Shown: positions 2,351 to 29,833, counted from the stretch's first letter. The stretch: DNA of 64,000 nt from Lentimicrobiaceae bacterium (GCA_041753535.1 JBGSUB010000067.1:138017-202016), one strand, 5' to 3'. Translations and numbers: made by a program. Notes: a model not told the origin generated them from the sequence alone.

Positions 2351-2355
2351 GGCTA

Positions 2356-3298: not shown

Positions 3299-3309
3299 AG
3301 GTAAGCTCA

Positions 3310-3343: not shown

Positions 3344-3410
3344 AACCTTTAAGTATAAATAATGGCAGATGCATTGCTCAAATAGTTAATTTTAACCCAA
3401 ATAAACAGAT

Positions 3411-5200: not shown

Positions 5201-5262
5201 TTCCTTTAATCGTTGTACGACTTTTCAAGCCATGATTTCAATTTGGCTGGCCCCCAAATTAT

Positions 5263-8389: not shown

Positions 8390-8550
8390 CAGGGTTTGTT
8401 TTGGGATTTATTTTTAATGTTCACTAATTTTTAGTTTTTAAACGTTTAGGTAACAAAATTCTGCTTGTATTGAAATCAATCGGATTTAGCTATTGCGACT
8501 TAGTTTCTGAACGGTCTTCATGCAGCTTCAGGCATTACAAACAAAACTAA

Positions 8551-10710: not shown

Positions 10711-10739
10711 AAGACGGTGTTTAGTTTCTTCAAGATATT

Positions 10740-12101: not shown

Positions 12102-12142
12102 CTGCTCCTTATTTTTAATTAAACACGAATTGAAAAGAAATG

Positions 12143-15100
12143 TTACAGATGTATATCCACAACGTTAAGTTGTTGATTTAAAAAGGATAAAAACAGATCA
12201 GAAGGAATAACAGCCCCACCTTTGCGGTATTTGTTTTCTTCCAACGTAAAGTCAATTTCATTTCCATTGACGCTTATCTCTTTGGGGCTGAAGTTATCGT
12301 GCTTTACATTGTACTTGAATGTGATTGCATGATCCATAAAGTCGATTGTAGCCGATAAACCATCCATCGAATGAGGAATCACAGGATCAATTATTACTTT
12401 TCCAACTTCTGGCCGTAACCCAAGCAACCGGGAAATAACCAGCGTAATGTAAATTCCGGGCCCGCTGGAATATACACGCCATCCGCCCCGGAGAGTGATT
12501 TTACCGGTTTTGATTTCATCATAACGCTCATCGGCTTCGTACCTGCTTTTGAATGCCACATCCGAACTGCTGTAATAGCAGTTGGCCTGGCGGATATCGC
12601 CACACGGCACAACATCGCGGTAACCTACAGGATTTGCCTGGCGGAGTGCTTTTACAAATGCGTCTGTATTGCCTGTAATGGCCTGTGATTCAGCATAGCG
12701 AATGTGCTCGTGAACATACATGATGCCTATTTCACGACCGAAATGTGTGGCACTTTCGGCACGTTGAAAAATAGTCTGAATTCCACCTTTGTATTTTAAA
12801 GGGCGGTCCATCAATCGCGCTCCATCAGGACCTTTCAAATGTTTCTCAATCAATTGCTGATGGTGTTGTGCTTGTTCTTTTGTAAAAATGCCGCTTATCA
12901 CTCCGCGATCCATCGGTAACAAACTATAATGTATGCCGGTTGTGGTATCGCTGGGATGAAGCAAGACACTGATACTTCCATCTTTCTCAAGCAGTCCGTA
13001 TCCGGCAACTACACCATCTTTAACCAGGTATTTGTTGAAATCGGATTTAATCTTAGTACAGATATCGTCTAATTCTTTTGCTTTTCCGGTGTTTCCGGTC
13101 TGCAGATACACATTTTTGTACTCATTAAATGCCTGGTAATTCATTTCCACCGTCCAACTCGAAATCATGCGTTCAGCCAGTTCTTTGCTTACGGGTTGGA
13201 GCGAATCGTTCCAGTCGCCGCCGCCAAAAGGCACAAGCGCAGTGCCTGGAATGTATGAATCTGTAATCATCTTTACGAGCCTGTCGAGATGTTCGCTTAA
13301 CGGAGTTTTTTCGGCGTAAGCAACACCTTTTTCGTGGTAATACGGAAGAATTTCATCGAGGAATTTCACATCGCCTGTAACTTTAATATAGCTGCTTAGC
13401 GCGATGATGCACCAGTAATAAACATCGCCATGGCAATCGCCGGCACGGATATTGAAATAGCTGTCGAACATCCACCACTGAGGCCAATCGCCAACCGTAT
13501 TCTGATTGGAGAAGATGGTACGGAGCACTTGTTTGGATTCATCAAACTTTTGTAAATTCAACAGAAGGTCAAAAGGTCCCTGCGAAACATCACGTGTTCC
13601 CCAGGCAGCGCCGCCAAATTGTTCCAGGCCGTGAGGCGTTAGAAAATGAGTAACTGCATTCATGCAAAACCAGGGCAGGATTTCCTGAATAGCGGCTGAA
13701 TCTTCATCCTTTCCTTTCAGCGAAAGGTTTAAACTCATGTCGCTCAAACCTGACTGGGCATCAGAGCAATCCGATTGAAATTGCTGATCTGTATTTTTTA
13801 TTTTTTCAATTGGGATGATTTCGCAAACCTCACCAACAAAACTCATTGAAAAACAGTCGGTTTTTTTTATATCAAGCACGAAAAATGAATCACCCCGTCT
13901 TATAGATTCAAAATTAACTGCCTCATTACCGAAAGCATTAAATTCCGAATTGCTGTTTACCAATATCCGGAATTGCGCTTTCGGGAATTTCTCTGCAATC
14001 ATACTTCCAACTTTAGGTTTGGAAACAAATTCTCCGGGACTATTTCCCGGAAGAACCGTCCATCCATTGCTTTCGTCAAAGTTATTTGTAATAAGCAATT
14101 TAACCTTTTCACCGCTTAAAACTTTAAAATCAATGTTTACGCGTGGAGATGTTTTTGAAGTCCATGTTCGGACCTGAAAAATATTCTCCCCAAATTTGTA
14201 TATCCAGCGGAAGTGGTTTAATCCCATTTCGAAAGCAGAAGGAACACCCAGCAAATATGACTTTCCATCGATTTCAACAAAAATTCTCTGACCTGTTTCC
14301 GGCTCATCGTTAAACTGGCTGGTGCAGACTGAAAGAAAAATATTAAAATTTGTATTGCCTTGTGTAACATGCGAATTGAAAATCCCGCCTGCAAAACAAG
14401 TAGTTGAAACAATGTTTTCATCCGCTTTGTATCCTGCCTGTGCCTGTATAATATTTCCGTGCGGCCGGTCAGCCAGGATTTCTTTTTCGCGCAATACTAC
14501 ATGGTTATTCGGTCCATAGAAAAACGATAACAACTTCCCGTTTTCGGTTTCGGTTTGCCTTCTGTTTTGATCAAAAAAGTGATTAATTTCTTCATCGTTC
14601 AGATCATCAACTGGCAAAAATGCTGAAGTGTTAAATAAGTTATGTGTAGGGGATAAGAACTTTTCTTCCTTATCAATTGAAATATCATTTTGAAATTCCA
14701 GCATCAAACCCGGAAGTTTTATTAAATCATCTGCTGATGTTGCTGTTGGATGATCAGGCAAATAAGTTGCAACAAAAACGCTGTTATGTGCTTCACCGGA
14801 AGGGAGTGAAAATGGACTTTCCTGCAAAGCAACCATCGACAATTCTCCTGCATATTCACCTCCGAGTGATTCTGCTTTCAATCCTTCAGGAATTCCGGTT
14901 CCACGAAAAGTTTTTCCCAGGAACTGCATTCCATCTGTACTTGCTGAAACTGCCTGGTTTTTACATGCAAGCATGATCCATGGATTACCTGTCGATTCCT
15001 TTGTATTCTGACGGCAGCAAACCACTGAACCATATTGTTTATCTTCAAGAATAAGTCTTTCAATATACTGGCTTACATAATATTCGTTAACCAATCCAGT

Positions 15101-15484
15101 TGAGATTGGCTTTAATCCGACATCCTGAACATAAATTAAATCGAGCTCAATAGTTTTGTGAGATTTGTTCTTAATATCAATGCTCCACTGCCAGCACATG
15201 CTTTTCTTCGAAAGCTGCATAATACACTCATAATCAAGTCCGTCCCAACTTCCTTGTGCAACAAATGACTCATTCTTTGTAAGGAAATGACTATTGCTTT
15301 CCGGACCTAATAGTGCCTTGAATTCGAACGGATTACTCCTTTTACGCAGGTATATGTTGGCTCCCGATTTTGAATACAATGTTGCAGTTTTTAGGCTAAT
15401 CCGTATCGGATCGGCTTCAATATGCTTAATCGATCCATTTTCGAGGAAATCGATTGAGAGGCCGGAGGAATTTTTAATGTTCAT
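12143..15484 (-). CDS. GH94 glycoside phosphorylase, long form (1,2-beta-oligoglucan phosphorylase-like)
   Basis: 1113 aa with no signal peptide. GH94 catalytic-domain motifs GGAAWGTRDVSQG and FGGGDWNDSLQP (GDWND catalytic Asp motif), plus RGGWRVYSSGPGIY. The length fits the ~1100-aa sophoro-oligosaccharide phosphorylase subgroup rather than ~800-aa cellobiose phosphorylases. Confidence 0.8.
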   Translation of the reverse strand: MNIKNSSGLSIDFLENGSIKHIEADPIRISLKTATLYSKSGANIYLRKRSNPFEFKALLGPESNSHFLTKNESFVAQGSWDGLDYECIMQLSKKSMCWQWSIDIKNKSHKTIELDLIYVQDVGLKPISTGLVNEYYVSQYIERLILEDKQYGSVVCCRQNTKESTGNPWIMLACKNQAVSASTDGMQFLGKTFRGTGIPEGLKAESLGGEYAGELSMVALQESPFSLPSGEAHNSVFVATYLPDHPTATSADDLIKLPGLMLEFQNDISIDKEEKFLSPTHNLFNTSAFLPVDDLNDEEINHFFDQNRRQTETENGKLLSFFYGPNNHVVLREKEILADRPHGNIIQAQAGYKADENIVSTTCFAGGIFNSHVTQGNTNFNIFLSVCTSQFNDEPETGQRIFVEIDGKSYLLGVPSAFEMGLNHFRWIYKFGENIFQVRTWTSKTSPRVNIDFKVLSGEKVKLLITNNFDESNGWTVLPGNSPGEFVSKPKVGSMIAEKFPKAQFRILVNSNSEFNAFGNEAVNFESIRRGDSFFVLDIKKTDCFSMSFVGEVCEIIPIEKIKNTDQQFQSDCSDAQSGLSDMSLNLSLKGKDEDSAAIQEILPWFCMNAVTHFLTPHGLEQFGGAAWGTRDVSQGPFDLLLNLQKFDESKQVLRTIFSNQNTVGDWPQWWMFDSYFNIRAGDCHGDVYYWCIIALSSYIKVTGDVKFLDEILPYYHEKGVAYAEKTPLSEHLDRLVKMITDSYIPGTALVPFGGGDWNDSLQPVSKELAERMISSWTVEMNYQAFNEYKNVYLQTGNTGKAKELDDICTKIKSDFNKYLVKDGVVAGYGLLEKDGSISVLLHPSDTTTGIHYSLLPMDRGVISGIFTKEQAQHHQQLIEKHLKGPDGARLMDRPLKYKGGIQTIFQRAESATHFGREIGIMYVHEHIRYAESQAITGNTDAFVKALRQANPVGYRDVVPCGDIRQANCYYSSSDVAFKSRYEADERYDEIKTGKITLRGGWRVYSSGPGIYITLVISRLLGLRPEVGKVIIDPVIPHSMDGLSATIDFMDHAITFKYNVKHDNFSPKEISVNGNEIDFTLEENKYRKGGAVIPSDLFLSFLNQQLNVVDIHL

Positions 15485-17917
15485 TTAACTCAACTTGATG
15501 GTAAGAATCATTACATGTTTATGTTTGTGACTGTAAATCATAGCTATCCGTTTTTCGTCACGGATTTCTCTGACAGATTCTCCGTTTAAATTGGCGGAAC
15601 TGATCTTTTTAACACCCGGACCCTCGAAAACTATTTCTCCTGCCAGGTCACGATCGCCATAAAGGGTAATTTCAACCTGATTTTCAGTTTTAACAATTCC
15701 AAGAATATCAGAAGTGCAATGCAGAATAGATAATCCGTCAGAAACTTTCATACATACCGGGCTTAGTATGCCATACAAGGCAGGCCAAAGCATCTCTCCA
15801 TGTGCATAAGGAATGGTTATAGTTTCTCCGTTTTCAGGATGTGTGTATGTGATTTTGCCTGTTTGTTCTTCGTTGTAATAATTGGCTACGAAAAGAACTG
15901 CGGCTTTGTCGCTGGTAAATCGTTCGCGAACAGCAATATTTTGATTGTTGGTCGAAGCTTGTCTGAGTTTAGCTTTTGATAGGTTAAGAAGCGCTTCATA
16001 CACAGGTTTCTGACCTTCCGTATCAAAACCAATCCACGTTCCGAGATGAGTAAGCGATCCGTTTCCGAGTGATTTTGTAAATCCGCATACCGAATTCCGG
16101 AGTGTTCGTGCAATTATTTTAGCACCAACCAGCGATTTTTCCGAATATACAACAAGAGGATTAGCGCACTTGATATCCTGCAGGTCAAAAACATCGATAA
16201 GTGGCGAATCAATAATTTCCTTTCCGGAAGGATAAACCGACAAAGCATCGCGAGTTATTGAACATGGTTTCTGCGACATTTCACGATCGGGGAGGTAGGG
16301 GAAAAGTACAAGGTTCCCGCCAGCTTTTGTATATTCAACAATGGTTTTCTGATCCGACGCATTCATTTCATCTGTGCTGAATGCCCAAACCTGTTTGTAA
16401 TTTCTCATTGATTCAGCTGAGGCTTTGGTAAGATCCATCATATCGTAATCAATATTAAGTATCTGAAGAACTTTCAATAAACCATCGAAATAAGCAGGCC
16501 TTCGAATAGCAGAAGGGTTAAATAGGAGTTCACAGGCTCCGTCAACAGGTCGTTCCAACTCCGAAGCGTAATATGGCGGATAAAAAAGGACGCAAACTTC
16601 AGCCTTACGCTTCGAATCAACGATAAGGCTTTCGGAAGTTTTAATGATTTTATTCATCCGTTGAACCAACGGAAAAGCACTTGTGCGCTCACCTTCAGGA
16701 GTGAGCGGGTTAAACCAATAGAAGGTGGAGCCTGAATAACCAGTGTGCCTGGTGTTTCGTCCTTGCGAAAACATATAGTAATTCCAGCCGGTGAGGCCGT
16801 TTGCAATGCTGGCTTTGTAGAAAAGTTCCATTTCACGCGGATTGGTAACCACATGATATTCGCGAGATCCACTCTGAAACTCGGCAGCAAACAAAGGCTT
16901 GTTGCCTTGCATGGCAAAGGTTATGTCATTTATAATCCGGTCGTCGTGCATATTGCGGTACGACAGGAATTCCGGGATATGATCGACACCGAATATAATC
17001 TCGCTTTTATCAAGAAACAGATCTTCGTACATCGTAATATTGACGGGGAATTCATAGCCATTACCATAAATCCAGCCCGGAAGATTGTGATACAAAGGAA
17101 CACTAACTCCTCTTTCTCTTGCCATGGCAGTTAGCATTCTCAGGTAGTCGCCATAATATGTCCGCCAGAAATTATGCCATTCGTGATCGCGGCCACGATC
17201 TGCTTTTGAAGCATAGGGAAGTCTTCCGTCAGGTGGAAGTTCAACGTTGGCAAAATCCTTGTAATTGGTTGCCCAAAGGCTGTTGAGTTCGTCAACATCA
17301 GTAAATTTCGTAATTAAATAGGCGGTGAAACGATCTTTCACTGCTTCGCAATAGTCAGCCTGGTGTGCCAGCCACGAGAAAACGCCGATCTCGTTGCAGA
17401 TCTGCATCATAATTATCGGTCCGCCGTTTGAAAGCTGGCGTTCGCTGATAAAAGGCATGATCTTATCGTACCAGAGTGTTACCTTTTCGAGGTATTTTTC
17501 GTTAAAAAGACTTACACCATCACTTGCAACAATGCCTCCTTTGCTGTTACGCATCTTAACTTCATCGCTGTATTGATCCATAAACCAGTCGGGCAAACCT
17601 GCACCGCGATACTCGGCAAGAATGAATGGTCCAGGTTTTACAATGCAATGCATTCCGTGAGCCTGGCAACTATCAATCCATCCTTTCAGATCACGTTCCG
17701 GACTAGAGGAACCATCAAAATCAAAAACACCTTCTACAGATTCGTGAAATGCCCATGGAACGTAAGTGCTGACTGTTGTAAGGCCCGCTTCTACGGCTGC
17801 ATCCAGATGCTTATCCCACAGCTCGCGTTTAATACGGAAATAATGTATTTCTCCCGAATTGAGAAACACCTTTTTGTCGTTAAGATAGAAGTTATTTTCC
17901 TTGATAGTGAAGGTCAT
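15485..17917 (-). CDS. Cytoplasmic GH35-family enzyme (formally beta-galactosidase family; context suggests action on beta-1,2-gluco-oligosaccharides)
   Basis: 810 aa with no signal peptide. GH35 TIM-barrel motifs TYVPWAFHE, acid/base region IIMMQICNEIG and nucleophile region PLFAAEFQSGS. Its stop codon (15485-15487) directly abuts the GH94 ATG (15482-15484). Confidence 0.8.
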   Translation of the reverse strand: MTFTIKENNFYLNDKKVFLNSGEIHYFRIKRELWDKHLDAAVEAGLTTVSTYVPWAFHESVEGVFDFDGSSSPERDLKGWIDSCQAHGMHCIVKPGPFILAEYRGAGLPDWFMDQYSDEVKMRNSKGGIVASDGVSLFNEKYLEKVTLWYDKIMPFISERQLSNGGPIIMMQICNEIGVFSWLAHQADYCEAVKDRFTAYLITKFTDVDELNSLWATNYKDFANVELPPDGRLPYASKADRGRDHEWHNFWRTYYGDYLRMLTAMARERGVSVPLYHNLPGWIYGNGYEFPVNITMYEDLFLDKSEIIFGVDHIPEFLSYRNMHDDRIINDITFAMQGNKPLFAAEFQSGSREYHVVTNPREMELFYKASIANGLTGWNYYMFSQGRNTRHTGYSGSTFYWFNPLTPEGERTSAFPLVQRMNKIIKTSESLIVDSKRKAEVCVLFYPPYYASELERPVDGACELLFNPSAIRRPAYFDGLLKVLQILNIDYDMMDLTKASAESMRNYKQVWAFSTDEMNASDQKTIVEYTKAGGNLVLFPYLPDREMSQKPCSITRDALSVYPSGKEIIDSPLIDVFDLQDIKCANPLVVYSEKSLVGAKIIARTLRNSVCGFTKSLGNGSLTHLGTWIGFDTEGQKPVYEALLNLSKAKLRQASTNNQNIAVRERFTSDKAAVLFVANYYNEEQTGKITYTHPENGETITIPYAHGEMLWPALYGILSPVCMKVSDGLSILHCTSDILGIVKTENQVEITLYGDRDLAGEIVFEGPGVKKISSANLNGESVREIRDEKRIAMIYSHKHKHVMILTIKLS

Positions 17918-17992: not shown

Positions 17993-20089
17993 TTATGAAT
18001 CTTCCCAGTGTGGCCTTTTAGCATTAATCTCTAAATTTGCATGATTCGCATTCCTTTTCTTAAGCAGGTCTTTGATTTCGTGCGAGCGTTTCTCGGTAAG
18101 TGAGTACCTCAGAACAAAGAAAATTGAGAAAATACTCAACAACATGGGAAGTCCGATTTCAACTACACGCATCATCAACAGTGTATAGGGTGATTGAATC
18201 GTTAGCTGAACAGTATCGGTTTCGAGAGTGCTGAGCTCTTTGTCCAGTTGATCCAAAGGCATATCTGTGGTTATTCTTGCCAGTTTTTTATCTACTCCAA
18301 TGCTGTTTTGAATAATTTGAGCGTAATGTTCCCTGCTTTTATCCGATTCAAGCGATTTGCCTTCAAGGTGTGCCAAAAGCTCAAAAGAATTCAGTCTCGC
18401 TTTTTCTAGTTTAGGCTGAAGTATTAAAGGGATAGCTGTGTTTAAAACGGTTTTGGTCAATGAGTCAGGTGATTGAGTGCTGATATTTCCCAATTGCACC
18501 TGTAATTTCTCCAATTCACTTATCGTTGATTTAGTGGTTAAGATTACCTCCGATAACTTGTTTTTCCGTTGATTTTTATATTCCGCAACATTCTGATAGG
18601 TTTCGTCCTGCTTTTTTACTGATTCTTTTTCAAGAACTTTTACATAGAGTTTTGAGTCATCGATTGCCTCAGCGACCTCTTTTTTTGTGTTCTGAAGCAA
18701 AGTTGTATTTGTACCAGACAAGCCCTGATCGCCCTGCCAGTCTTTGATATCACTCCTTATTTCCCTGATATTTCCCTGCAAACTGTCCACTTTTGTAACC
18801 TGTGTTTCATCAAAAAGGGTAAAGACAATCAACGCACCCGCGATTAAACTAGCTAGCGCTGTTCCCATTTTAATAAACCACCAGAAAACGGAATAGAAAC
18901 TTCCTTCGGAGCGGTGACCGGTTTTTAATTCATCTTCATCGCAGATATCGCCAACCATGGATGATCCCAAGGTAAAGAAAAATAACATACCTGCGGAAAG
19001 CAATACAGTCGGGATAAGTACAAGATACGGATAGGTTGGATTGTAGCACACAATTTTCGAAGCTTGTGCTAAAACCATGAGAATAATTGCAATGGTGAGG
19101 GTTTTTCGCTTACCAAGCCTCGGACTTATCCAGTTGAGTGGAAAAACGGCAAGCACTCCGGTTATGGCCCAAACTGTACCATTGATTCCAAGAAGCGTGG
19201 CTCCTGCAACTTTATCGCCACCATAAATATAAAATATAGGAATGTACGAACCCAGCAGGCTCACAAAATTGAAACCCATTGCCAGGGTGAAAATGGTAAG
19301 CGTAAGCATGATAAAATTCCTGTTGTTGGCAGTGCGTTTCATGTCAGTCCAGAAAGGTGTTTTTTCCTGCGTCTCAACTTTTTTAAATCCCGGTTCGCGC
19401 AATTTTAAAAACCACCAGAAGGAAAGTGGAATCAGGACAGCCGCGATAAGTATGGAAACATAACGCATTCCATCCATTTCGTTGCCACCCGGACCTTTGA
19501 ATATTTCCATACTTGCAAGTGCAAACAGCCATGGTGTGCTCATGGCAAAAAGATTGCCAACGAAACTTTTAGCGCTGAATAGTCGGGTTCGTTCATGGTA
19601 ATCGGTCGTCATTTCCATTCCTAAAGCTCCGTGAGGAATTTCGAAGATATTCACTGCCGTGAAAAAGATCAGAAGAGATATCAGAATATAGACAAGCTGA
19701 AACGCCTGAAAACCGGAGTCGGTCGGGAACCAGCTATGTACCAGTTCACCTTTTGGAATCCACCATATAACAACAAACGAGAGCGCTACAGCAATTCCTC
19801 CCAATAACAGATATGGACGACGGCGGCCCCAGCGCGTGCGGGTATTATCCGAAAGATGACCAATGATTGGATCGGACAGCGCATCCCACAAACGGGGCAC
19901 AATCAGTATCGCTCCAAGCCAGAAAGCGCTCAATCCCAGGCTTATATTGCCCATCAAGCCTACAAGTATTCCGGCTACGTTGAAAAGTGCAATAGGAATT
20001 ATCCCTCCGGCTCCATAGGCAGCCAATTGTGAAAAGCGGATTTTGTCCTCTGCCTTTGTGCTTCTGTCGACCGTAATTTCTTCTTCCAT
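17993..20089 (-). CDS. GPH-family (glycoside-pentoside-hexuronide:cation symporter) MFS transporter with a large insert before the last TM helix
   Basis: 698 aa. GPH signature DALSDPIIGHLSDNTRTRWGRRRPYLL after TM2. There are 11 hydrophobic helices, then a ~215-aa hydrophilic, heptad-rich segment (residues ~427-640), then a 12th helix VVEIGLPMLLSIFSIFFVL. Confidence 0.85.
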   Translation of the reverse strand: MEEEITVDRSTKAEDKIRFSQLAAYGAGGIIPIALFNVAGILVGLMGNISLGLSAFWLGAILIVPRLWDALSDPIIGHLSDNTRTRWGRRRPYLLLGGIAVALSFVVIWWIPKGELVHSWFPTDSGFQAFQLVYILISLLIFFTAVNIFEIPHGALGMEMTTDYHERTRLFSAKSFVGNLFAMSTPWLFALASMEIFKGPGGNEMDGMRYVSILIAAVLIPLSFWWFLKLREPGFKKVETQEKTPFWTDMKRTANNRNFIMLTLTIFTLAMGFNFVSLLGSYIPIFYIYGGDKVAGATLLGINGTVWAITGVLAVFPLNWISPRLGKRKTLTIAIILMVLAQASKIVCYNPTYPYLVLIPTVLLSAGMLFFFTLGSSMVGDICDEDELKTGHRSEGSFYSVFWWFIKMGTALASLIAGALIVFTLFDETQVTKVDSLQGNIREIRSDIKDWQGDQGLSGTNTTLLQNTKKEVAEAIDDSKLYVKVLEKESVKKQDETYQNVAEYKNQRKNKLSEVILTTKSTISELEKLQVQLGNISTQSPDSLTKTVLNTAIPLILQPKLEKARLNSFELLAHLEGKSLESDKSREHYAQIIQNSIGVDKKLARITTDMPLDQLDKELSTLETDTVQLTIQSPYTLLMMRVVEIGLPMLLSIFSIFFVLRYSLTEKRSHEIKDLLKKRNANHANLEINAKRPHWEDS

Positions 20090-20110: not shown

Positions 20111-23100
20111 TTAGTAATAGATAACCACTTCTGCAGGAATCACCTTAACAGAAATCTCTTTTTCATTAAACTCTTTAATAACCGTTCCGTTCACGGTTAT
20201 TTTTGCCGGAAGCTTCGATCCATTGAAGTTTTTAATTTTCATGCCGTTTGCCGGAAGTTTTACATCGCCGGTAATGGAGAAGCGATAATTGCTGCTTTCT
20301 TTTTTGATTGAATAGGAAATCTCACCGTAGTAGGTTGGCAGATTTTCAATGGACATTCCCTGTGGCGCATCAATCCAATCCTGGTAAAGTGCCGAAGCTA
20401 GCACAAGCGATTGATCATACTCATTTTCGTATACAAACATGGAACGTATGGAATTGATAAAATCGCTACCAACCCAGGTATGCGGCATATCTCCGATAAA
20501 ACCGGGGAAACGGTCGTTTTTCCAAACCACTTCAGCCCAGTGGTTCCAGCCTTGCGGTTTTTGATCCTTCAGGAAAAAGTCAATTAACTCATGGGCCCTG
20601 TCCGGCTGATCCAGAATTATAAAAGAACCGATCAGGCGGTTTTCGTAGGGAGTATAATTCACCCAGTCGAGTTTGCCATCCCTGCGGTTTTTGAAAAATC
20701 CGTAATATTTATCAAACGTGTTGTAAACCTGTGGTTTTGGCAGGTTTTTCAGTTCGTTGCAGGGTGTTAATGCTACGGTTGTTGAGGTGGCATCAAAATC
20801 ACCCAGTTCGGCACAACCGGGGATGTAATCAATTTTCCTGTTTTTCATCGCGAGTTGCAGAGAGTTGTAAAGATTCTCCTTAAACGTATCGCGAAGTTTG
20901 GTTATGCGTTCATAATCAGCGGTTTTGCCAAGTATTTTCTGAATCTCCACGGCATCCTTCAATCCTTTGATGGTAAAGAAATTATCCCAGTAGGAGTGCA
21001 TAGGTTTGGCTGAATATCCTTCGTGGCTGATGGATTCCGGAACCAGGCCATAATGTGCTCTTACACTTTCGTTCCCGTTTTTAAAATAATCTGTCGAGCG
21101 CTCGGCCACCAGGGCTTCGATGTATTCAACAGCCTTCAACACATGGTTGTTGTTCGATTTCAGAAAAGCAGTGTCGTGGGTAAAGTTGAAATATTCGCGG
21201 ATCAGGTAAATCAGTTGCCCGTGGCTGTCGTTTTCGGGAACAGGGTCGGGGCCCCTGAAATCAACCACGCAGGGAACCTTGCCGTTTTCGTATTGGTGGG
21301 CTGCATACCAGACGATAAAATCTTTTACTTCCTGTACGATTCCGGATTTTAAAAGTGCGGATGAAGTGAGGGAGCCGTCGCGGATCCAGCTTCGCTCGTA
21401 TGAGCGTGAGCCGGGTTGAATGCCTGCCTTGTCCCGGTTCAATAAAATATACCCCAGGTTCGATTTATATGTATTTACAATCCTGTCGCCCGAGGGGGGC
21501 AGATTGAAACGGATATGGCTGGTTTTTTCTTTCCAGAATTCAGCAGATTTCGCAAATTCAACTGAAGTGTTGTCGGCGCTGAGTTTTCCGTCGGGAGTAT
21601 TTTTACCATAGAAGGGAACTGCCAAAAACAATTCCGTACTTTCGCCCGGATTAAGAAGTAAACTGTATTTAACCAAACCATTTGCCAGGCCGTTTTTATC
21701 AACGGCTGATTTACTTACCGGCATTTTCCCCTGCCGAACAAGGTCAACAATATTTCCTTCATCAAAAGCGCTTGCTCCGAAGGAATCGTATTTCTTTTGA
21801 AAAAGCACAACTTTATCGTCCACTGACACATAATTGCCGGCTTCTTCTTTGATGGATTTGATTTTTCCGGCCCCACCGGTCATATTCAGAAACTGGTAGT
21901 ATGGATTAACCTGGTACGGACGGATAAGCAGGTAAAACTCAAAATCCTGCGGCTTGTCCGAGGTGTTATGTAAAAAGTACCTGATGTCGAGTTTTGAATT
22001 TTTGTTAGCCTCGCCGGTTGCTGTAACACTGCTAACTAATGTGAGGTTTTTTAACTGCCAGGTGACCGACGGAATAAAATCAAATTCACGCTGATCTTTT
22101 GAGTTCCCCATCGATTGGCTGGCTTTTACATTGTGCCAGTTATAAATTGAATCCCCCATTTTAATAAGCGGCTCGATGGAAAAGAGGCCTTTATCCACTT
22201 CTACAATCCCGTCCTCGCTGATCATGGCTTCTTTTACATCATTGTTTACACCGGCAACGGTCCAGAAGGATGCCAGCTCCGAAAAGTACCTCGGGTAGTT
22301 TCCAACAGGAGAGTTTTTTGCTGTGTAAATCAGGAAATCATTCGGTAATAAGGATTCTTTAATGCTCAGAAATTTAATTTCGCTGATTGCATAACCTTCG
22401 GAATTACTGTTTATAAGGTTTATCTTCATGAACCTGGCTTCAGCCTCGGGCAACCGGATAAAACTTACATTACTCTGATTGGACTGAACGGAATAAACTT
22501 TTTCCCAGTTTTTTTCGTCAGTTGAAAGTAGTATATCAAAGCTTTTTGCTGATTTGTCTTTCAGCCAGTCGATCTGCAAACCGCCGAATTCCCTGCGGGC
22601 TTTGAAATCAATAGTAACGATCTGAGCTGCAGATTTGCTGCTTTGCCAGGAGGTTTTATCCGATTTATCAAATAATAAAGCTGTATTCTGTTTTTTTTGC
22701 GAAGAAGTTGCTGTTGCAACAGGCTGCGGATAAGTTTGCGTTTCGGGCGGCAAAGCTTCAAATTTGAAATCATCGAGCCAGATGGTTCCTTTTCCGCCAA
22801 CAAAGGATGCGATTGTGAATTCAATCCGGTCGATACGTTTTAAATTCTGGTCGGTGGTTGGTCCCCATGCAAAACTTATGTGTCTTTTTTTGATGGTTAT
22901 CTTTTTCCATTCAGTCGGGAAATCGTAGTTGCGGTTGCTCACCCACCAAACGTTGTCACCTGATTTATCTGCAAATTTTATTTCAAAATTATTGGCAGGC
23001 GATTCGGCTTTCACATAAAACGTAAACTGGTAATTTTCAGGCATGTCAATCGGGATGAGTTTCTGAATTCCGCCGTAACCGGTTCCGTGAGTGAAATCGT

Positions 23101-23293
23101 AATCAAATCGTATGGCATTGCCGGTTAATCCTTTTTCGTTGGATAAGTTAAGATTAACACCATCGGACTGTATGAAATACCATCCGTTTTTGTTCTCGAA
23201 CTCATCGAGGGTTTTTATTTGAGCATGGATCAGGTTGATTGTGAGTAACAACATGATCAATACTGCAGTTTTTTTTCTGAATAGCTTTTCCAT
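20111..23293 (-). CDS. Secreted multidomain protein: jelly-roll CBM-like + F5/8 type C (discoidin) + beta-sandwich + (alpha/alpha)6-like putative glycoside hydrolase, family unassigned
   Basis: 1060 aa. Signal peptide ..LLLTINLIHAQ. N-terminal CBM11/CIA30-like module ending TIWLDDFKFE. Discoidin module (DKTSWQS.., FGGLQIDW, YAISEIKF). Helical region with the glucoamylase-like motif SYERSWIRDGS. C-terminal beta-sandwich. Confidence 0.6.
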   Translation of the reverse strand: MEKLFRKKTAVLIMLLLTINLIHAQIKTLDEFENKNGWYFIQSDGVNLNLSNEKGLTGNAIRFDYDFTHGTGYGGIQKLIPIDMPENYQFTFYVKAESPANNFEIKFADKSGDNVWWVSNRNYDFPTEWKKITIKKRHISFAWGPTTDQNLKRIDRIEFTIASFVGGKGTIWLDDFKFEALPPETQTYPQPVATATSSQKKQNTALLFDKSDKTSWQSSKSAAQIVTIDFKARREFGGLQIDWLKDKSAKSFDILLSTDEKNWEKVYSVQSNQSNVSFIRLPEAEARFMKINLINSNSEGYAISEIKFLSIKESLLPNDFLIYTAKNSPVGNYPRYFSELASFWTVAGVNNDVKEAMISEDGIVEVDKGLFSIEPLIKMGDSIYNWHNVKASQSMGNSKDQREFDFIPSVTWQLKNLTLVSSVTATGEANKNSKLDIRYFLHNTSDKPQDFEFYLLIRPYQVNPYYQFLNMTGGAGKIKSIKEEAGNYVSVDDKVVLFQKKYDSFGASAFDEGNIVDLVRQGKMPVSKSAVDKNGLANGLVKYSLLLNPGESTELFLAVPFYGKNTPDGKLSADNTSVEFAKSAEFWKEKTSHIRFNLPPSGDRIVNTYKSNLGYILLNRDKAGIQPGSRSYERSWIRDGSLTSSALLKSGIVQEVKDFIVWYAAHQYENGKVPCVVDFRGPDPVPENDSHGQLIYLIREYFNFTHDTAFLKSNNNHVLKAVEYIEALVAERSTDYFKNGNESVRAHYGLVPESISHEGYSAKPMHSYWDNFFTIKGLKDAVEIQKILGKTADYERITKLRDTFKENLYNSLQLAMKNRKIDYIPGCAELGDFDATSTTVALTPCNELKNLPKPQVYNTFDKYYGFFKNRRDGKLDWVNYTPYENRLIGSFIILDQPDRAHELIDFFLKDQKPQGWNHWAEVVWKNDRFPGFIGDMPHTWVGSDFINSIRSMFVYENEYDQSLVLASALYQDWIDAPQGMSIENLPTYYGEISYSIKKESSNYRFSITGDVKLPANGMKIKNFNGSKLPAKITVNGTVIKEFNEKEISVKVIPAEVVIYY

Positions 23294-23497: not shown

Positions 23498-24895
23498 CTA
23501 TTTTAAATATGCGTACCCAAGTCTGGTAAGGCCTTTCTGTATAATCGGATCCTTCATTACATAATCCCACACCAGTCCGGTTCTGAAATTTTCGATCATT
23601 ATCAACATTGGTCCTTGATCAATTCCGATAAAGTCATTGTTGACCCACTTTATTGTCGGATTAAAGGAATCATAATACCCGTATTTTCCCCATAATTCCT
23701 TACCATATTTTGCATTGATCGATTTCATGGTAGGTAAAACGATTTCAGGTGCAAACGGCAGGGATGACATAGGGCCGTATGGGGCGATGGTTCCGTCTTC
23801 AGCAATTGTGTGATCCCGTCCACTGCTTCCTCTGCCTGCATATCCTTCAAACTTTTTATCCCCGAAATTAAATGAACTCCCGGGTCCGTCGCTGGCAGTA
23901 AATCCCCAGCACAGGGAATCATAGCCAACCCATCCTTTTGGGTTTTCTATGGCATATTCCCTTTGAACGAAAGTGGCACGCCGGGAATTTTCGAAATAAT
24001 CAATACCTTTTTCTTTCATGTATTTGTCCCCAAGCCCACGATAATCAATAAACGCCTGCGAAAACTGGTGACCGAATAAAGGAGGAAAAGCCACATGCGA
24101 AAGTCCTTCGTAAGGTGTTTTCCAGTCGTAGGTCGAAAGCCAGGAATTATAACTTTTCTCTACATCTTTCATACCTGTTCCGGCAGCAAGAACATACAAA
24201 AACAGACCTTCATTATATCCGCTCCAGCCATGGTTAAGCAATCCTTCCTCCGGCGACCATGCCATCGATATGCAATTAGCATGTTTTCCGCTTGGTGGCA
24301 TCAGGAAAAAACTCCAGTCCATTCTCCCAAGCAACATGGCTGAGAGTTCCCGAATCTGCTTTTCATCCGCGTTGTCGAGGTTATAATAGTTTCGGGCAAA
24401 TAGTATACCCATCATCAGCAAGCCTGTATCAATGGATGAAAGCTCGCACTTCCATTCGCGGGTGCCGGAATTCATACGAAGGAAATGGTAATAAAAACCC
24501 TTGTACCCTGTTGCATTTGTATCAGTGCTTTGAACGGAATTGGCAAAGAATTTCAGCATATTTAGTGTAATCTCTGCTGCCTGCTTCCTAGTGATCCAGT
24601 TTCTTTCGGCACCAATTGCGAGTGAGGGAATACCAAATCCTGTGGATGCAATGCTGGCAGGAGCCCATGATGCGGCACGGTCTTTAACAATTCCCATTTC
24701 AGGGTGATGCTCGTTTAAGAAGAAAAGGAACGTTTTATACTGAATGGAATCCAGCATAGCTGTTTCATCAGCAGTCAGAGGGTAATTAATCTTTCCCTGC
24801 GATTGGAATTCGGTTTTCTGCGATTGAGCACAACCCGAAACCGCCATCAGAATAAAAAAGAATAATATTTTACTGAGTTTTAGCTTGTTTTTCAT
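23498..24895 (-). CDS. Divergent GH144-like (DUF3131 superfamily) lipoprotein, putative beta-glucanase
   Basis: 465 aa. Lipobox MAVSGC. It follows the same motif order as the other GH144 copies but is clearly diverged: YKTFLFFLNEHHPEMGIV, STGFGIPSLAIG, GFYYHF, SIDTGLLMMGILFA, MAWSPEEG, GYNE, WGFTASDGP, LPFAPE, YGYYDSF, IDQGPMLIMIENFRTGLVW. Confidence 0.7.
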   Translation of the reverse strand: MKNKLKLSKILFFFILMAVSGCAQSQKTEFQSQGKINYPLTADETAMLDSIQYKTFLFFLNEHHPEMGIVKDRAASWAPASIASTGFGIPSLAIGAERNWITRKQAAEITLNMLKFFANSVQSTDTNATGYKGFYYHFLRMNSGTREWKCELSSIDTGLLMMGILFARNYYNLDNADEKQIRELSAMLLGRMDWSFFLMPPSGKHANCISMAWSPEEGLLNHGWSGYNEGLFLYVLAAGTGMKDVEKSYNSWLSTYDWKTPYEGLSHVAFPPLFGHQFSQAFIDYRGLGDKYMKEKGIDYFENSRRATFVQREYAIENPKGWVGYDSLCWGFTASDGPGSSFNFGDKKFEGYAGRGSSGRDHTIAEDGTIAPYGPMSSLPFAPEIVLPTMKSINAKYGKELWGKYGYYDSFNPTIKWVNNDFIGIDQGPMLIMIENFRTGLVWDYVMKDPIIQKGLTRLGYAYLK

Positions 24896-24993: not shown

Positions 24994-26967
24994 TTATTTG
25001 TAGTTGTATCCCAGTTTCGTTAATCCTGTCTGTACCTCGGGAGCGCTCATAAAAAGATCCCATAACAATCCTGTACGGTAATTTTCAATCATACAGATTT
25101 CCGGGCCCTGGTCGATGGCAATGTAGCTGCTTGCCCACCAGTTATCCGAAACACTGAATGCATCATAAAAGCCGTAGGGTCCCCAGAGTTTATCTCCTAA
25201 TATGTAGTAGAAATACCTGATGGCATCCATGGATTGTTCGGGTGAATAGGGGAGCGATGAAACAGCTGCCGTAGGTGCAATTACCCCCCTGTCGTTGGTG
25301 GGTTCGCTTACGCCGTATCCTGAAGGAATATCGCTGGCTGTGAGTCCCCAGCAGAACTCATTATAGTTTATGTATTTCTTAGGATTTGTATCGCAGTGTT
25401 TCCAGTTGATAAGGGAATGATTTTGGTTTTGAGTCCAGTAGTTGGCATAAGCGTCCGAAAGGTTTCTCGGATCAAGACCCAGGAATGAATAATGAGCAAA
25501 GAAAAGAGGTCCACCATAATCGTAACCTACCGGTAACACATAACCGTAAAAAGTTTTACCGTTAAGTATTGCCCCGTTGCGTGCATATCCCTGGTGATAA
25601 GCTGTGGCCGGAATAGTATGGATAGGGGATGCGGCTGCCAGAATGTAAGTAATAAGTGTTTCGTTGTATCCCCGGAGCTGGAAATTCATATCCCAGCCAT
25701 AATTTGGCGACCAGTGCCAATAAAGAACATTCTGACCACCACGGGTGTACCAGTCCCATTCCACAGTATTGTAAAGGTGGGTAATTTTAACAGCTAGTTC
25801 ATTTTCATCAGGTTGTGAAAGGTTAAGATATTGCCTTGCTGCCAGCAATCCCTGTATCATAAATGCAGTTTCAACCAGGTCGCCACCATTGTCTTTTGTG
25901 CCAAAAGGAATCACTTTTCCGGTACTGCCATTTATCCAGTGCGACCAGGCCCCGTGAAAACGATCTGCAGTTTCGAGGAATGAAACTATTTTAGTTAAGT
26001 GTATTATGCCTTCGGTTCGGGTAATAAAACCGCGTTCGATTCCTACAATTATAGCCATTACGCCGAATCCGGACCCGCCGGTTGTAACTACATCACCAGA
26101 TCCGTAACGTTCGCGTGCCATGCCACTGGCCGGGTGAGCATAATCGTAAAAATATTTAAACGTCTGGTGCTGAACAAGCGTCAGGAGATCATCGTCACTT
26201 ATCAGAGGGAATTTAAGTGAAGAATCGAGAGCTGTAAAAAATGAATTGTTGAATCCTTGAAATGAATATCCGTTTACGCCTAGCAGATCGGGAGAAATAG
26301 AGAAATTATAATTAGAGTATCCTTTAAAATTTTGTCCGAAAGAAACTTCTACATTTTTAACATTATTCGAAGTATTAATTATCATTGGTATACCGCCTGA
26401 AATGTAGAAGAAGGAAGCAAGCTGTTGTGTACTGACCGGATCCGAAAACTCAATATTTATTGTTGTTCCGGCCAGCGAAATATTTTTTACTTTGGCAGGA
26501 GGAAGAAAGTCCTGGTTGTTAATAGTAATTGTATTGATAGTAAGTACTCCATTAGTTGTGACAAAAGCGAATTGAAGCCCTGGAAAGGTTTCACCATTTT
26601 TACCACGTAAAGCGGAAGAAATATCCAGAGTGTACCCTGTTACTTCTTCAAGTTGATTTGTTGGTGACAGAACTACGGTTTTGGATTCGTTCGTAAAATG
26701 GATTTGGTAATCTATTTCTGTTGTGTTCTTTTTAATCCTGATGTTGTTCAATGCTGACATACTGTCAATTGCGGCTGAAAAGTTTATAATTATGTCTTCA
26801 TTATATGGAACATCAGTTGTATTTCCCGGGTAATTCAGCGGCACCGTTCCAACGGTACATGATGATAACTGCATCACGCCCGCATTTTCGGTATTATCTT
26901 CTTTACAGGAGTAAACCAGGATACATGCAGCAAATCCAATAATTAGTATAGCGGCTGAACGTTTCAT
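24994..26967 (-). CDS. GH144-family putative endo-beta-1,2-glucanase lipoprotein with two N-terminal Ig-like (SbsA/Big_5-type) modules
   Basis: 657 aa. Lipobox ILVYSC. ~240-aa N-terminal Ig-like repeats. GH144 motifs FKYFYDYAHPASGMA, GGSGFGVMAI, RFHGAWSHW, NGGDLVETAFMIQGLL, YWHWSP, GYNE, FFAHYSFLGLDP, WGLTASD, LPYSPE, YGFYDAF, IDQGPEICMIENYRTGLLW. Confidence 0.82.
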   Translation of the reverse strand: MKRSAAILIIGFAACILVYSCKEDNTENAGVMQLSSCTVGTVPLNYPGNTTDVPYNEDIIINFSAAIDSMSALNNIRIKKNTTEIDYQIHFTNESKTVVLSPTNQLEEVTGYTLDISSALRGKNGETFPGLQFAFVTTNGVLTINTITINNQDFLPPAKVKNISLAGTTINIEFSDPVSTQQLASFFYISGGIPMIINTSNNVKNVEVSFGQNFKGYSNYNFSISPDLLGVNGYSFQGFNNSFFTALDSSLKFPLISDDDLLTLVQHQTFKYFYDYAHPASGMARERYGSGDVVTTGGSGFGVMAIIVGIERGFITRTEGIIHLTKIVSFLETADRFHGAWSHWINGSTGKVIPFGTKDNGGDLVETAFMIQGLLAARQYLNLSQPDENELAVKITHLYNTVEWDWYTRGGQNVLYWHWSPNYGWDMNFQLRGYNETLITYILAAASPIHTIPATAYHQGYARNGAILNGKTFYGYVLPVGYDYGGPLFFAHYSFLGLDPRNLSDAYANYWTQNQNHSLINWKHCDTNPKKYINYNEFCWGLTASDIPSGYGVSEPTNDRGVIAPTAAVSSLPYSPEQSMDAIRYFYYILGDKLWGPYGFYDAFSVSDNWWASSYIAIDQGPEICMIENYRTGLLWDLFMSAPEVQTGLTKLGYNYK

Positions 26968-27047: not shown

Positions 27048-28295
27048 TTAAAGTTTTTCTGATTTGTACATTAAATCAACTTCAGCAGCAGTAATTGCTT
27101 TGTTGAATATCCTAACGTCATCGAGTTGACCCTTAAAGTGGTTAGCACCAGGGATTTCATATCCGCCCCATGGTTCGGTATCCCACATGGTTCCTGCTCT
27201 TGACTGAATAAATCCGAATGCAAGTTCGTTAACAACATCAGGTGCTTTTCCGCCATACAACAAGCCGGTAACTTTTACCCATTTGTCGGTAACCGGCCAC
27301 AAATTGAAATCCTGTGATTTAACTGCTTCGCCGTTCATATAGATGGTACCTACGCGGGTAGTGCTGTTGTATGTACAAACTACATGAGCCCAAGTGTCTT
27401 TCAGAAGGCTTGGTATTCCGCCTGAACCGGTCATGTCTTTGTTAACAGTCCAGCCTTGCCAGCCTCCGTTATCTTTAGTTTTACCGTCGCCATTCCACCA
27501 GTTGTCAGTGAAAATAGCTGTATCGCCACCTCCCTGGTAAGAATATGCTGCTGCTAATTTGCAGTTAGTGAAGTCACCGGCTATTTCGAACTGGAATCCG
27601 TAGAAAGCACCAAGACCCATTACGAAATGTCCTTTATCCTGCGATAATGCTTTTACCCAGAAACTTAAAGTGAAATCAGGATTCATAAGCTGATCGCCAT
27701 TCGGAATTTCAATAATGCTTGAAGTTCCGTTGAATGTAGCAGCTTTACCGGCGGCGGTGCTGTGGGAAGCTGTGTAAGTAACAGCAACCGTAGCACTTGC
27801 ATTGAACGATCCTACCTGATCATTTGCATTATCTTCGAAATTCCACCATGCAATTTGTCCTGACGGGGCAAATGTTCCAATGGTGGTAAATGTTCTTTCC
27901 AACGCTGTAAGTGCTTGTCCTTCAGTTGATTTAATGGATGCAGCAAAATTTAGTTTGAAAAGTGCTCCACTTGCTAAAACTTCGTTAGGAACTATGGTAA
28001 TCTTATTATCAGCAACAGTAACAGTCAGAGGAATTGCGGTATTGTCGTAATTTCTCATCATAGTGATACTTGAATTGTTGGCTGTAGCGGCATCAACACT
28101 AGTAGTGAAGGTTGCAACAATTGTTGGATCAACAGAAACGTTACTCGGAGCCACTGCGCCATTCATATCAATGTCGTCTGCTACGAGAGTTTGAAGAGTA
28201 AGAGCTGTTGGATCATCATCTTTACAGCTGTTCATTCCGGCAAGTAATACTACGGCCAGAATAAGTGTACTTAAATAAGCAATCTTGTTTTTCAT
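27048..28295 (-). CDS. Surface lipoprotein with Ig-like + LamG/concanavalin-A-like lectin domain (SusE/F-position surface glycan-binding protein candidate)
   Basis: 415 aa. Lipobox LLAGMNSC. Big_5-like N-module. LamG_3-type C-terminus (..FKGQLDDVRIFNKAITAAEVDLMY). Sits immediately downstream of susD. Confidence 0.75.
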   Translation of the reverse strand: MKNKIAYLSTLILAVVLLAGMNSCKDDDPTALTLQTLVADDIDMNGAVAPSNVSVDPTIVATFTTSVDAATANNSSITMMRNYDNTAIPLTVTVADNKITIVPNEVLASGALFKLNFAASIKSTEGQALTALERTFTTIGTFAPSGQIAWWNFEDNANDQVGSFNASATVAVTYTASHSTAAGKAATFNGTSSIIEIPNGDQLMNPDFTLSFWVKALSQDKGHFVMGLGAFYGFQFEIAGDFTNCKLAAAYSYQGGGDTAIFTDNWWNGDGKTKDNGGWQGWTVNKDMTGSGGIPSLLKDTWAHVVCTYNSTTRVGTIYMNGEAVKSQDFNLWPVTDKWVKVTGLLYGGKAPDVVNELAFGFIQSRAGTMWDTEPWGGYEIPGANHFKGQLDDVRIFNKAITAAEVDLMYKSEKL

Positions 28296-28340
28296 AGGTT
28301 GATTTTAATTAAGGGTTTGACATTATTGATTTGAAGTTAT

Positions 28341-29828: not shown

Positions 29829-29833
29829 GTCCG

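Follow-up and report, generated by a model that had tools for sequence, protein, structure and literature searches.

The window analyzed here is a stretch of 64,000 nucleotides from a Lentimicrobiaceae bacterium (GCA_041753535.1 JBGSUB010000067.1:138017-202016), and the gene under study lies at positions 20111-23293 on its minus strand, within a polysaccharide utilization locus (PUL) for β-1,2-glucan. Its product, referred to as the target in the following, is quite probably an active glycosidase of a new family that is dedicated to the catabolism of β-1,2-glucans and osmoregulated periplasmic glucans (OPGs). The open reading frame (ORF) is real and the gene lies far beyond chance, since a word-indexed search returned over 2,241 homologues, with 72-100% identity over the full length among the best 120; the ORF itself is a 100% match to the homologue P0001. 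The gene and the parts of its product are the following.

20111..23293, minus strand: target gene, the family member under study, a complete ORF of 1060 aa plus stop
23222..23293, minus strand: signal peptide, aa 1-24, of the signal peptidase I (SPI) type, ending ...LIHA before QIK, without a lipobox Cys
22754..23218, minus strand: N-terminal β jelly-roll, CBM11-like, aa 26-180 (PDB 1v0a, weak CBM_4_9, DSSP, conservation)
22367..22720, minus strand: F5/8 type C (discoidin, CBM32-like) module, aa 192-309 (PF00754)
21614..22363, minus strand: β-sandwich "N-domain", aa 311-560 (DSSP of the models, Foldseek)
21524..21577, minus strand: helical linker, aa 573-590 (DSSP of the model)
20435..21496, minus strand: (α/α)6 six-hairpin barrel with twelve long helices in the model, aa 600-953, candidate catalytic domain (Foldseek, weak Pfam matches, hhalign)
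20114..20434, minus strand: C-terminal β-sandwich, aa 954-1060 (DSSP of the model)

The original prediction had described a protein of 1060 aa with a signal peptide, a jelly-roll, an F5/8 type C module and an (α/α)6-like region, and this anatomy is borne out by Pfam, by PDB searches and by an AlphaFold2 model of the full-length target, which was built on an alignment of 71 sequences with 31-83% identity and reached a pLDDT of 93.6 and a pTM of 0.91; a separate model of aa 311-1060 is concordant (pLDDT 92.4). The signal peptide is predicted to be cleaved after MEKLFRKKTAVLIMLLLTINLIHA and before QIK. The jelly-roll ends ...TIWLDDFKFE and consists of β-strands only in the model. Over aa 27-169 it has a weak match to the CBM11 of Clostridium thermocellum CelH (1v0a, E 1.6e-3 in the PDB sequence search), and a sub-threshold Pfam match to CBM_4_9 covers aa 76-133. 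The CBM11 model PF03425 is matched by one of 27 family members (E 1.3e-5) and not by the target itself. Near-invariant residues of this module are W38, W116-W117 and W143-G144-P145. The discoidin module is matched by PF00754 on aa 193-302 with 49.7 bits against a cut-off of 28.2 (E 5e-13), and the family profile matches CBM32 structures in the PDB (4zz5, E 2.4e-7). By its sequence it is a CBM32 / F5_F8_type_C module, for which sugar binding is predicted. In the full-length model the β-sandwich ahead of the barrel occupies aa ~340-560. The C-terminal β-sandwich has no Pfam match, and a sorting domain of the type IX secretion system was not detected there.

The target gene is part of a long array, whose other genes are given here.

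27048..32875, minus strand: lipoprotein resembling a surface glycan-binding protein (SGBP; Big_5 + LamG), SusD and SusC
24994..26967, minus strand: Big_5 + GH144 lipoprotein (N-terminus)
23498..24895, minus strand: adjacent upstream GH144 lipoprotein (GH144_c), of the XcSGL/XCC2207-like endo-β-1,2-glucanase type (PF10091, E 1.7e-70)
17993..20089, minus strand: downstream MFS_2 inner-membrane transporter, 698 aa (Pfam)
6101..17917, minus strand: remaining array of GH35-like protein, GH94 1,2-β-oligoglucan phosphorylase (SOGP), GH144_b, GH144_a and GH3 (PDB searches)

From SusC (29834-32875) to GH3 (6101-8389) all genes are co-directional, in the order SusC, SusD, Big_5+LamG lipoprotein, Big_5+GH144, GH144, target, MFS_2, GH35-like, GH94 SOGP, GH144, GH144 and GH3. 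The SusC gene and the SusD gene at 28341-29828 are thus followed by ten co-directional genes down to the GH3 at 6101, and with the regulator at 33473-36319 this is the make-up of a PUL. The GH144 protein adjoining the target best matches XCC2207/XcSGL (8xul, E 1.4e-106 in the PDB sequence search), which is a validated β-1,2-specific endoglucanase (PMC12102758). GH144_a (734 aa, 8551-10755, minus strand) is a full-length homologue of the exo-sophorohydrolase BDI_3064 (5z06, E 1.8e-247), and the GH35-like protein (15485-17917, minus strand) is a full-length homologue of the Ignavibacterium album β-1,2-glucosyltransferase IaSGT (7vkw, E 1e-154). Altogether the PUL has four GH144 paralogues of at least three types, namely XcSGL-like, CpSGL-like and BDI_3064-like, in addition to the GH3. 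The Big_5+GH144 lipoprotein is probably surface-exposed, because acidic residues follow its Cys. As judged from the N-termini, this protein, the SGBP-like lipoprotein and SusD are probably surface lipoproteins, the target, the BDI_3064-like GH144 and the GH3 are predicted to be periplasmic, and the SOGP and the GH35-like protein cytoplasmic. The target had been taken for the largest non-transport protein of the locus, which is wrong, as the SOGP (12143-15484) has 1113 aa.

Some of the neighbouring genes have peculiarities of their own. Pfam covers only aa 49-434 of the MFS_2 transporter, and ahead of its last transmembrane helix there is a hydrophilic, coiled-coil-looking insert of about 210 aa without a Pfam match; the unusual length is kept in related loci (32 members in 31 loci, median 690 aa). 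The GH35-like gene borders directly on the GH94 SOGP gene, without any intergenic space, and both products are without a signal peptide. The BDI_3064-like GH144 gene (8551-10755) overlaps the preceding GH144 gene (10740-12101, minus strand) by 16 nt, which suggests translational coupling. The regulator (33473-36319, minus strand, 948 aa) carries Reg_prop/Y_Y_Y sensor repeats and a weak C-terminal helix-turn-helix of the GerE/sigma-70 region-4 type at aa 905-943. As histidine-kinase and receiver domains are absent, it has the appearance of a one-component regulator that spans the membrane rather than of a hybrid two-component system; BguR (preprint 10.64898/2026.01.10.698779) serves for comparison. 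Just past the regulator, a GH89 α-N-acetylglucosaminidase (NAGLU) with a C-terminal discoidin-like module is encoded at 36496-39381 (minus strand), which has no evident connection to β-1,2-glucan.

The family of the target is large and widely spread. An exhaustive search of 50%-identity representatives gave 2,310 clusters at E<=1e-3, of which 736 remain at E<=1e-30, and most of the representatives are about 1,050 aa long with the same layout as the target. A scan of GTDB found at least 600 stretches, and 597 of the 600 listed encode relatives; the locus analyses described below use the best 80 of these stretches, which come from Bacteroidota, Ignavibacteria, Verrucomicrobiota, Calditrichia, Phycisphaerae, Gemmatimonadota, Kryptoniota and Gammaproteobacteria. 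The family spans at least eight phyla. Most members come from anoxic sediments, and the family is also found in cultured Sphingomonas, Croceibacterium and Porphyrobacter; orthologues from cultured strains include those of Croceibacterium sp. TMG7-5b (WP_347304547.1) and of Sphingomonas panni, S. hankookensis and S. alpina. It is unnamed: the best 120 homologues are either without a name or called "discoidin domain-containing", and every source gives only this name or "hypothetical". It escaped annotation because only its discoidin module is recognized. A description of the family was not found in the literature, and the 2025 inventories of β-1,2-glucan enzymes are without it.

Two sets of relatives deserve mention here. 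Divergent members with 28-31% identity occur on a plasmid of Methylosinus sp. C49 (11224-14097 of locus L083) and in Methylocystis (hit H4). These lack the signal peptide and the CBM11-like module, carry Val at the position of E884, and adjoin a true GH15 gene and a gene for a 1128-aa hypothetical protein, not a GH144 gene; they may form a separate cytoplasmic subfamily with another function. In Xanthomonas sacchari R1 (NZ_CP010410.1; 11119-14177 of locus L082), a member that is not annotated is split over frames 1/2/1/3 downstream of LacI, a TonB-dependent receptor (TBDR), GH144 and an ATP-binding cassette (ABC) transporter. Either this copy is a pseudogene or assembly errors have broken its frame, and we regard it as a lead only.

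The association with β-1,2-glucan genes, which the original prediction had drawn from the single locus, holds across phyla. Using the window's neighbours as tblastn queries, GH144 was found within 10 kb in 54 of the 56 loci of at least 15 kb, and in the same loci GH94 SOGP was found 29 times, the GH35-like protein 25 times, the MFS transporter 23 times and GH3 20 times. The proposed check of co-occurrence with GH144 and GH94 was also run by an unbiased clustering of all neighbouring ORFs, in which GH144 ranks first (63/80 loci) and GH94 second (43/80). In 40 of 71 loci the gene directly upstream, in the same orientation, is a GH144 gene, in 28 of 75 the gene directly downstream encodes MFS_2, and in loci outside the Bacteroidota an ABC sugar transporter takes the place of SusCD/MFS. 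A natural fusion of 1516 aa (P0110, P0272, P0280, P0281 and P0284, all metagenomic) joins an XcSGL-like GH144 to the mature family protein. Its GH144 part is an orthologue of the GH144 adjacent to the target (76% identity), and at the junction ...GLTTLGYKPL-T-KTLDEFEN... a single residue is followed by K27, directly after the removed signal peptide. The fusion is present in several independent assemblies of one lineage, with one variant on 14 contigs. Only two long loci are without GH144, and these carry opg genes (L071) and a GH94 gene (L078), respectively. In L071, from uncultured Gammaproteobacteria (1793-5889 and 6616-13129), the family member comes after the genes for an ABC sugar importer and adjoins a divergently oriented opgG (MdoG, E 1.6e-189) and an opgH-like GT2 gene, so that here the family gene stands beside OPG biosynthesis genes in a probable producer. 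A minimal operon in Croceibacterium consists of a TBDR, a GH144 and the family member, the latter with overlapping start and stop codons, with GH3 nearby. The linkage of the family to GH144 is at least as tight as that of any listed β-1,2-glucan enzyme.

Esterases recur in these loci as well. A 243-aa α/β-hydrolase esterase (Abhydrolase_2, DLH, Esterase) lies directly beside the family member in eight loci (L041, 5809-6537, and seven others), and one family representative, P0138, has a weakly recognizable GDSL-acylhydrolase N-terminal extension, which together hint at acylated natural substrates. A GH2-like protein of 702 aa is encoded in 21 loci, mostly of Ignavibacteria, and a GH43+F5/8 protein in 8 loci.

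The export of the target, also part of the original prediction, is supported by its SPI signal peptide and by a crude check for a hydrophobic N-terminal region, which was positive for 194 of 222 full-length family members, with few lipoboxes among them. The same check was positive for 89 of 106 GH144s and 19 of 24 GH3s, and for none of 45 SOGPs and 31 GH35-like proteins. As far as such N-termini tell, export is a family trait, common to periplasmic hydrolases, and this argues against a phosphorylase.

The relation of the target to known glycoside hydrolase (GH) families is remote throughout. No family in Pfam, NCBIfam or the PDB covers aa 310-1060, PDB sequence searches with the target, the family profile and member P0152 returned nothing for this region, and the profile and structure matches are distant, so the earlier statement that no GH family is recognizable stands. 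The sole family-level signal in the C-terminal 750 residues is TIGR01577 (GH15-type) on aa 631-730, with E 4.5e-5 and 22.3 bits against a cut-off of 820.7. The target has no match to PF00723 (GH15) at E<=1, and in other family members the Pfam GH15 model scores no higher than 19 bits, short of its cut-off of 22, over profile positions ~36-69 or, at the widest, ~7-97, which is the W-x-R-D/helix-α2 region. The 27 family members that were scanned with Pfam for weak six-hairpin matches gave such matches to Bac_rhamnosid6H (GH78) in 19 cases, to Glyco_hydro_15 in 17, to GDE_C (amylo-α-1,6-glucosidase) in 13, to the GH95 catalytic domain in 5 and to MGH1-like in 3. The Bac_rhamnosid6H matches span about 170 residues of the barrel and exceed the cut-off of 24.5 bits in two members (30.2 and 32.6 bits). 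The GH94 models PF17167 and PF06165 match neither the target nor any of the 27 members. In profile comparisons with hhalign, the family was aligned to an SOGP alignment from the window and related loci with a probability of 86% (E 5e-6, ~280 residues) and to a five-sequence GH15 alignment, whose reference is 100% identical to 3eqa_A, with a probability of 14% (E 0.002). An alignment to a single fungal GH15 sequence (0.6%) was misaligned and was discarded for the five-sequence profile. Kinship with the GH144/SGL clan was rejected, as hhalign gave a probability of 0.2% against the four GH144 proteins of the window.

The motif SYERSWIRDGS named in the original prediction is present at aa 631-641, at the start of helix α2 of the predicted barrel. 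Its resemblance to GH15 proved real, as seen with hhalign and TIGR01577, but it is local, being confined to the helix-α2 region. The reported absence of a WEE motif and of a GH144 signature likewise agrees with our searches, in which PF10091 (GH144) has no Pfam match in the target.

The structural neighbours found by Foldseek in the PDB (to April 2026) are all distant (9-13% identity) and comprise GH94, GH15, GH65, GH116, ExoMA2, glycogen debranching enzyme (GDE) and GH78; no PDB structure belonging to the target's own family was found. Nearest among them are the folds of GH94 phosphorylases and GH15 glucoamylases, with 10-13% identity and a TM of about 0.55-0.63. The best E-values were obtained with GH94 cellobiose/chitobiose phosphorylases (8ho7, E 5e-18; TM 0.58/0.54), and the GH94 domain of cyclic β-1,2-glucan synthase (CGS) is among the matches (8rf0, TMq 0.59). 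The best superposition is with a bacterial glucoamylase of GH15 (1lf6, TM 0.58/0.63, root-mean-square deviation 5.3 Å). The GH15 dextran dextrinase 9ju0 and the glucodextranase 1ug9 are matched with E ~1e-14, and GH78 structures are weaker matches than those of GH94 and GH15 (TM 0.37-0.43). The alignments to multi-domain chains of GH94 and GH15 span ~800-900 columns and include the N-domain, a β-sandwich of the kind that precedes the barrels of GH15, GH65 and GH94. As the profile, Pfam and structure matches combined are exclusively remote, the target belongs to the GH15/GH65/GH94-type superfold and yet lies outside each of its families.

With GH15, whose compared structures 1lf6, 1ug9 and 9ju0 fall in clan GH-L, the target has in common the plan of β-sandwich N-domain, linker and (α/α)6 barrel and the export of the hydrolase, as well as Y-x3-W-x-R-D at the start of helix α2 and E/Q-x-D before helix α4, as aligned by hhalign. 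Invariant Glu residues are found in the α5-α6 and α11-α12 loops, which would correspond to the sites of the GH15 acid E179 and base E400. The target differs by its 10-13% identity, by S-H-E-G-Y in place of W-E-E, by two additional N-terminal modules resembling carbohydrate-binding modules (CBMs), and by a β-1,2-glucan context instead of the α-glucan context of GH15. GH94 (clan GH-Q) shares the four-domain plan and the metabolic pathway, and has a W-x-x-R-D motif at the equivalent place, but GH94 enzymes are cytoplasmic and their catalytic GGGDWND loop is absent from the target. The SGL clan (CpSGL, XcSGL, BDI_3064; GH162, GH189, GH192-194) likewise consists of exported (α/α)6 enzymes from the same loci, but has no sequence relation to the target; its members are single-domain barrels without a β-sandwich N-domain (PMC12102758). 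GH78 and GDE_C resemble the family in their multi-domain make-up with β-sandwiches and CBM-like modules and in the weak hidden Markov model (HMM) matches, whereas their structural similarity is lower (TM 0.37-0.56) and their genomic context unrelated.

Conservation was analyzed in 151 sequences, that is, the 150 best-scoring 50%-identity cluster representatives and the target. Sixteen barrel residues are invariant in 149-151 of these, namely R630, Y632, R638, D639, D689, H757, E758, D770, D832, Y883, E884, R886, E921, D935, H938 and W940, and W38, W143 and G144 in the N-terminal modules are nearly so. As read from the sequences, the invariance of the barrel is an active-site pattern and not that of a binding scaffold. 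Three elements stand out.

21374..21406, minus strand: motif R630-S-Y632-E-R-S-W636-I-R638-D639-G640 at the N-terminus of helix α2, putative -1 subsite (invariant in 150-151/151)
21014..21034, minus strand: loop S754-I-S756-H757-E758-G759-Y760 between α5 and α6, with E758 as candidate general acid (H757 and E758 invariant, 151/151)
20474..20533, minus strand: loop E921...G934-D935-M-P937-H938-T-W940 between α11 and α12, with E921 (or D935) as candidate general base (all invariant)

As reference we take the GH15 sites of Aspergillus niger to be Y48, W52, R54 and D55, the acid E179, R305, the base E400 and W417. hhalign places Y632/W636/R638/D639 on Y48/W52/R54/D55 and E687/D689 on Q124/D126. 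The GH15 WEE loop and the GH94 GGGDWND loop align, with gaps, at or just before the invariant PESISHEGY loop of the target, the SOGP segment falling into a gap just before it. In the model E758 lies in the α5-α6 loop, R886 at the N-terminus of α10, E921 in the α11-α12 loop and W940 at the N-terminus of α12. By this loop topology R638/D639, E758, R886, E921 and W940 would correspond to GH15 R54/D55, E179, R305, E400 and W417. E758 is thus a candidate general acid by the position of its loop, and E921, or else D935, may be the base, as topological counterpart of E400...W417; E921 precedes W940 by 19 residues and E400 precedes W417 by 17, with the alignment being gapped or absent over these loops. 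It is on this residue correspondence that an inverting hydrolase is proposed.

Taken together, the family, which Pfam, NCBIfam and the PDB leave unclassified, probably consists of exported, inverting glycoside hydrolases, and among the activities suggested in the original prediction a cyclic-glucan-opening or other accessory glycosidase is the one we favor. In such a pathway, a surface GH144 would cut the β-1,2-glucan, be it a cyclic glucan or an OPG, and the fragments would be imported by SusC/D, or by a TBDR in Proteobacteria. In the periplasm they would be processed by the target, the other GH144s and the GH3, and the MFS transporter would pass sophoro-oligosaccharides on to the cytoplasmic GH94 SOGP and GH35 transferase. 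The target itself would act by single-displacement, anomer-inverting hydrolysis, with the glucosyl residue in subsite -1 held by W636/R638/D639, E758 serving as acid and either E921 or D935 as base, and the two rigidly attached, highly conserved CBM-like modules might enlarge the area to which a long or cyclic β-1,2 chain binds. The bond cleaved would be one that GH144 and GH3 cannot finish, for instance at an α-1,6 closure, at a branch point or in a limit oligosaccharide with substituents. The complete reading, in which such a resistant linkage is the substrate, we hold tentatively, as somewhat short of an even chance. It was shown in vitro that the GH144 enzyme CpSGL and the GH3 enzyme BtBGL fully degrade β-1,2-glucans, and that they leave a non-degradable glucopentaose from α-1,6-cyclised β-1,2-glucans (bioRxiv 10.1101/2025.04.21.649730). 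A resistant structure is favored because of this glucopentaose and because the PUL already has sufficient GH144 and GH3, and further because of the minimal operon, the α-glycosidase-like HMM matches and the esterases. The narrower proposal that the target, as a GH15/GH94-like inverting hydrolase whose two CBM-like modules recognize the β-1,2-glucan chain, cleaves the α-1,6 closure itself or the α-1,6 pentasaccharide left by GH144 and GH3 is rather doubtful.

Several points weigh against a resistant linkage as the substrate. The fold does not reveal the scissile bond or its anomeric configuration, and both the structure search and the profile comparison rank β-glucoside phosphorylases of GH94 first, including the CGS domain that makes β-1,2-glucan, which would be just as compatible with a β-1,2-specific enzyme. 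With its two large conserved CBM-like modules, the target looks more like an enzyme acting on polymers than like a trimmer of pentasaccharides. Redundant GH activities are common within PULs, which makes the argument from non-redundancy a weak one, and the abundance of α-1,6-cyclised glucans in anoxic sediments, the source of most members, is uncertain. The assignment of catalytic residues rests on loop topology and low-probability alignments, and hhalign puts the GH15 WEE about 20 residues ahead of E758, across a gap.

The alternative that survives best, and which we consider only somewhat less likely than the favored reading, is that the target is itself a β-1,2-glucan-specific hydrolase, either a new endo family, an exo enzyme releasing glucose or sophorose, or a specialist for cyclic or long chains, and in effect a periplasmic hydrolytic relative of the GH94 β-1,2-oligoglucan phosphorylase. 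GH94 indeed provides the best Foldseek E-values and, with the SOGP of the locus, the only substantial profile match, all neighbours act on β-1,2 linkages, the fusion to an endo-β-1,2-glucanase suggests a common polymer substrate, and the large CBM-like modules would suit a polymeric or cyclic one. The locus, however, already holds four GH144 genes, the BDI_3064 and XcSGL types included, as well as GH3, and the Croceibacterium operon keeps the family beside GH144 and GH3, which suffice in vitro for plain β-1,2-glucan. Moreover, a sequence relation to the SGL clan is missing (hhalign 0.2%), and the Pfam-level similarity of the members is to α-glycosidase models, not to GH94. The exo-sophorohydrolase suggested in the original prediction is less likely for a related reason, since the PUL encodes with GH144_a a full-length sophorohydrolase of the BDI_3064 type.

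It is improbable that the target, instead of hydrolysing β-1,2-gluco-oligosaccharides, remodels them in the manner of GH94, GH65 or dextran dextrinase, be it as a phosphorylase or as a transglycosylase/cyclase. β-1,2-Glucan loci are known to hold transglycosylases such as the GH35 enzyme IaSGT (PMC8861115), the closest folds include GH94, GH65 and the GH15 transglycosylase dextran dextrinase 9ju0, and the homologue in L071 lies beside opgG and opgH. Against this stand the family-wide export, which contrasts with the cytoplasmic SOGP and GH35 controls without signal peptides, the absence of the catalytic GGGDWND loop, and the catabolic context of PUL, TBDR and importers. Known glycoside phosphorylases are cytoplasmic. 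The invariant E921 would also occupy the place where GH15 has its water-activating base and where phosphorylases bind phosphate.

We consider it just as hard to believe that the target has an unrelated glycosidase specificity, such as that of a divergent GH78-like α-L-rhamnosidase, so that it trims a non-glucan part and is only indirectly linked to the glucan. GH78 is the most frequent weak Pfam match (19/27, two above the cut-off), and some of the related loci share GH2-like and GH43 genes, but the target has no match to PF17389 (Bac_rhamnosid6H) even at E<=1, GH78 is a poorer structural match than GH94 or GH15, W-x-R-D is common to glucose-binding GH15 and the GH94 SOGP motif, minimal loci hold glucan enzymes only, and the window PUL has no rhamnose-related genes. 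The removal of succinyl or phosphoglycerol decorations, which had also been suggested, is unlikely and was rejected because of the six-hairpin glycosidase fold; in the related loci there are separate esterases and the one weak GDSL fusion instead. A non-catalytic scaffold that presents β-1,2-glucan to GH144 is very improbable, since in spite of the two CBM-like modules, the GH144 fusion in one lineage and the absence of canonical WEE and DWND motifs, 151 representatives at <=50% identity share eight invariant acidic residues of the barrel besides Arg, His, Tyr and Trp, the SPI type points to the periplasm, unlike in surface-lipoprotein SGBPs, and the PUL already has a dedicated SGBP-like lipoprotein.

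β-1,2-Glucans, as cyclic glucans and OPGs, are symbiosis or virulence factors and osmoprotectants of many Proteobacteria. The α-1,6-cyclised β-1,2-glucans, which Xanthomonas makes, are family-IV OPGs and a virulence factor of Xanthomonas-type bacteria. The enzymes acting on β-1,2-glucan that have been listed since 2014 comprise GH94 SOGP, GH144, GH162, GH186, GH189, GH192-194, GH35 SGT and GH3/GH1 β-glucosidases (PMC12369401, PMC12102758). To these the family described here would add a new family-level variant of six-hairpin glycosidases with good prospects of a new specificity, and the target likely supplies a missing step in β-1,2-glucan breakdown. Direct testing is feasible, as cultured Sphingomonas and Croceibacterium carry intact copies, and intact copies in other xanthomonads would be informative with Xanthomonas being a producer of α-1,6-cyclised β-1,2-glucan. 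If the α-1,6 proposal were true, this would be a new CAZy family with the first known enzyme that degrades α-1,6-cyclised β-1,2-glucans. Characterization would probably create a new CAZy family, improve the annotation of more than 2,000 protein clusters from sediment, soil and plant-associated bacteria, and yield a tool enzyme for analyzing or producing β-1,2-gluco-oligosaccharides. It would probably also complete the degradation pathway, and possibly explain how α-1,6-cyclised, branched and decorated β-1,2-glucans are finished.

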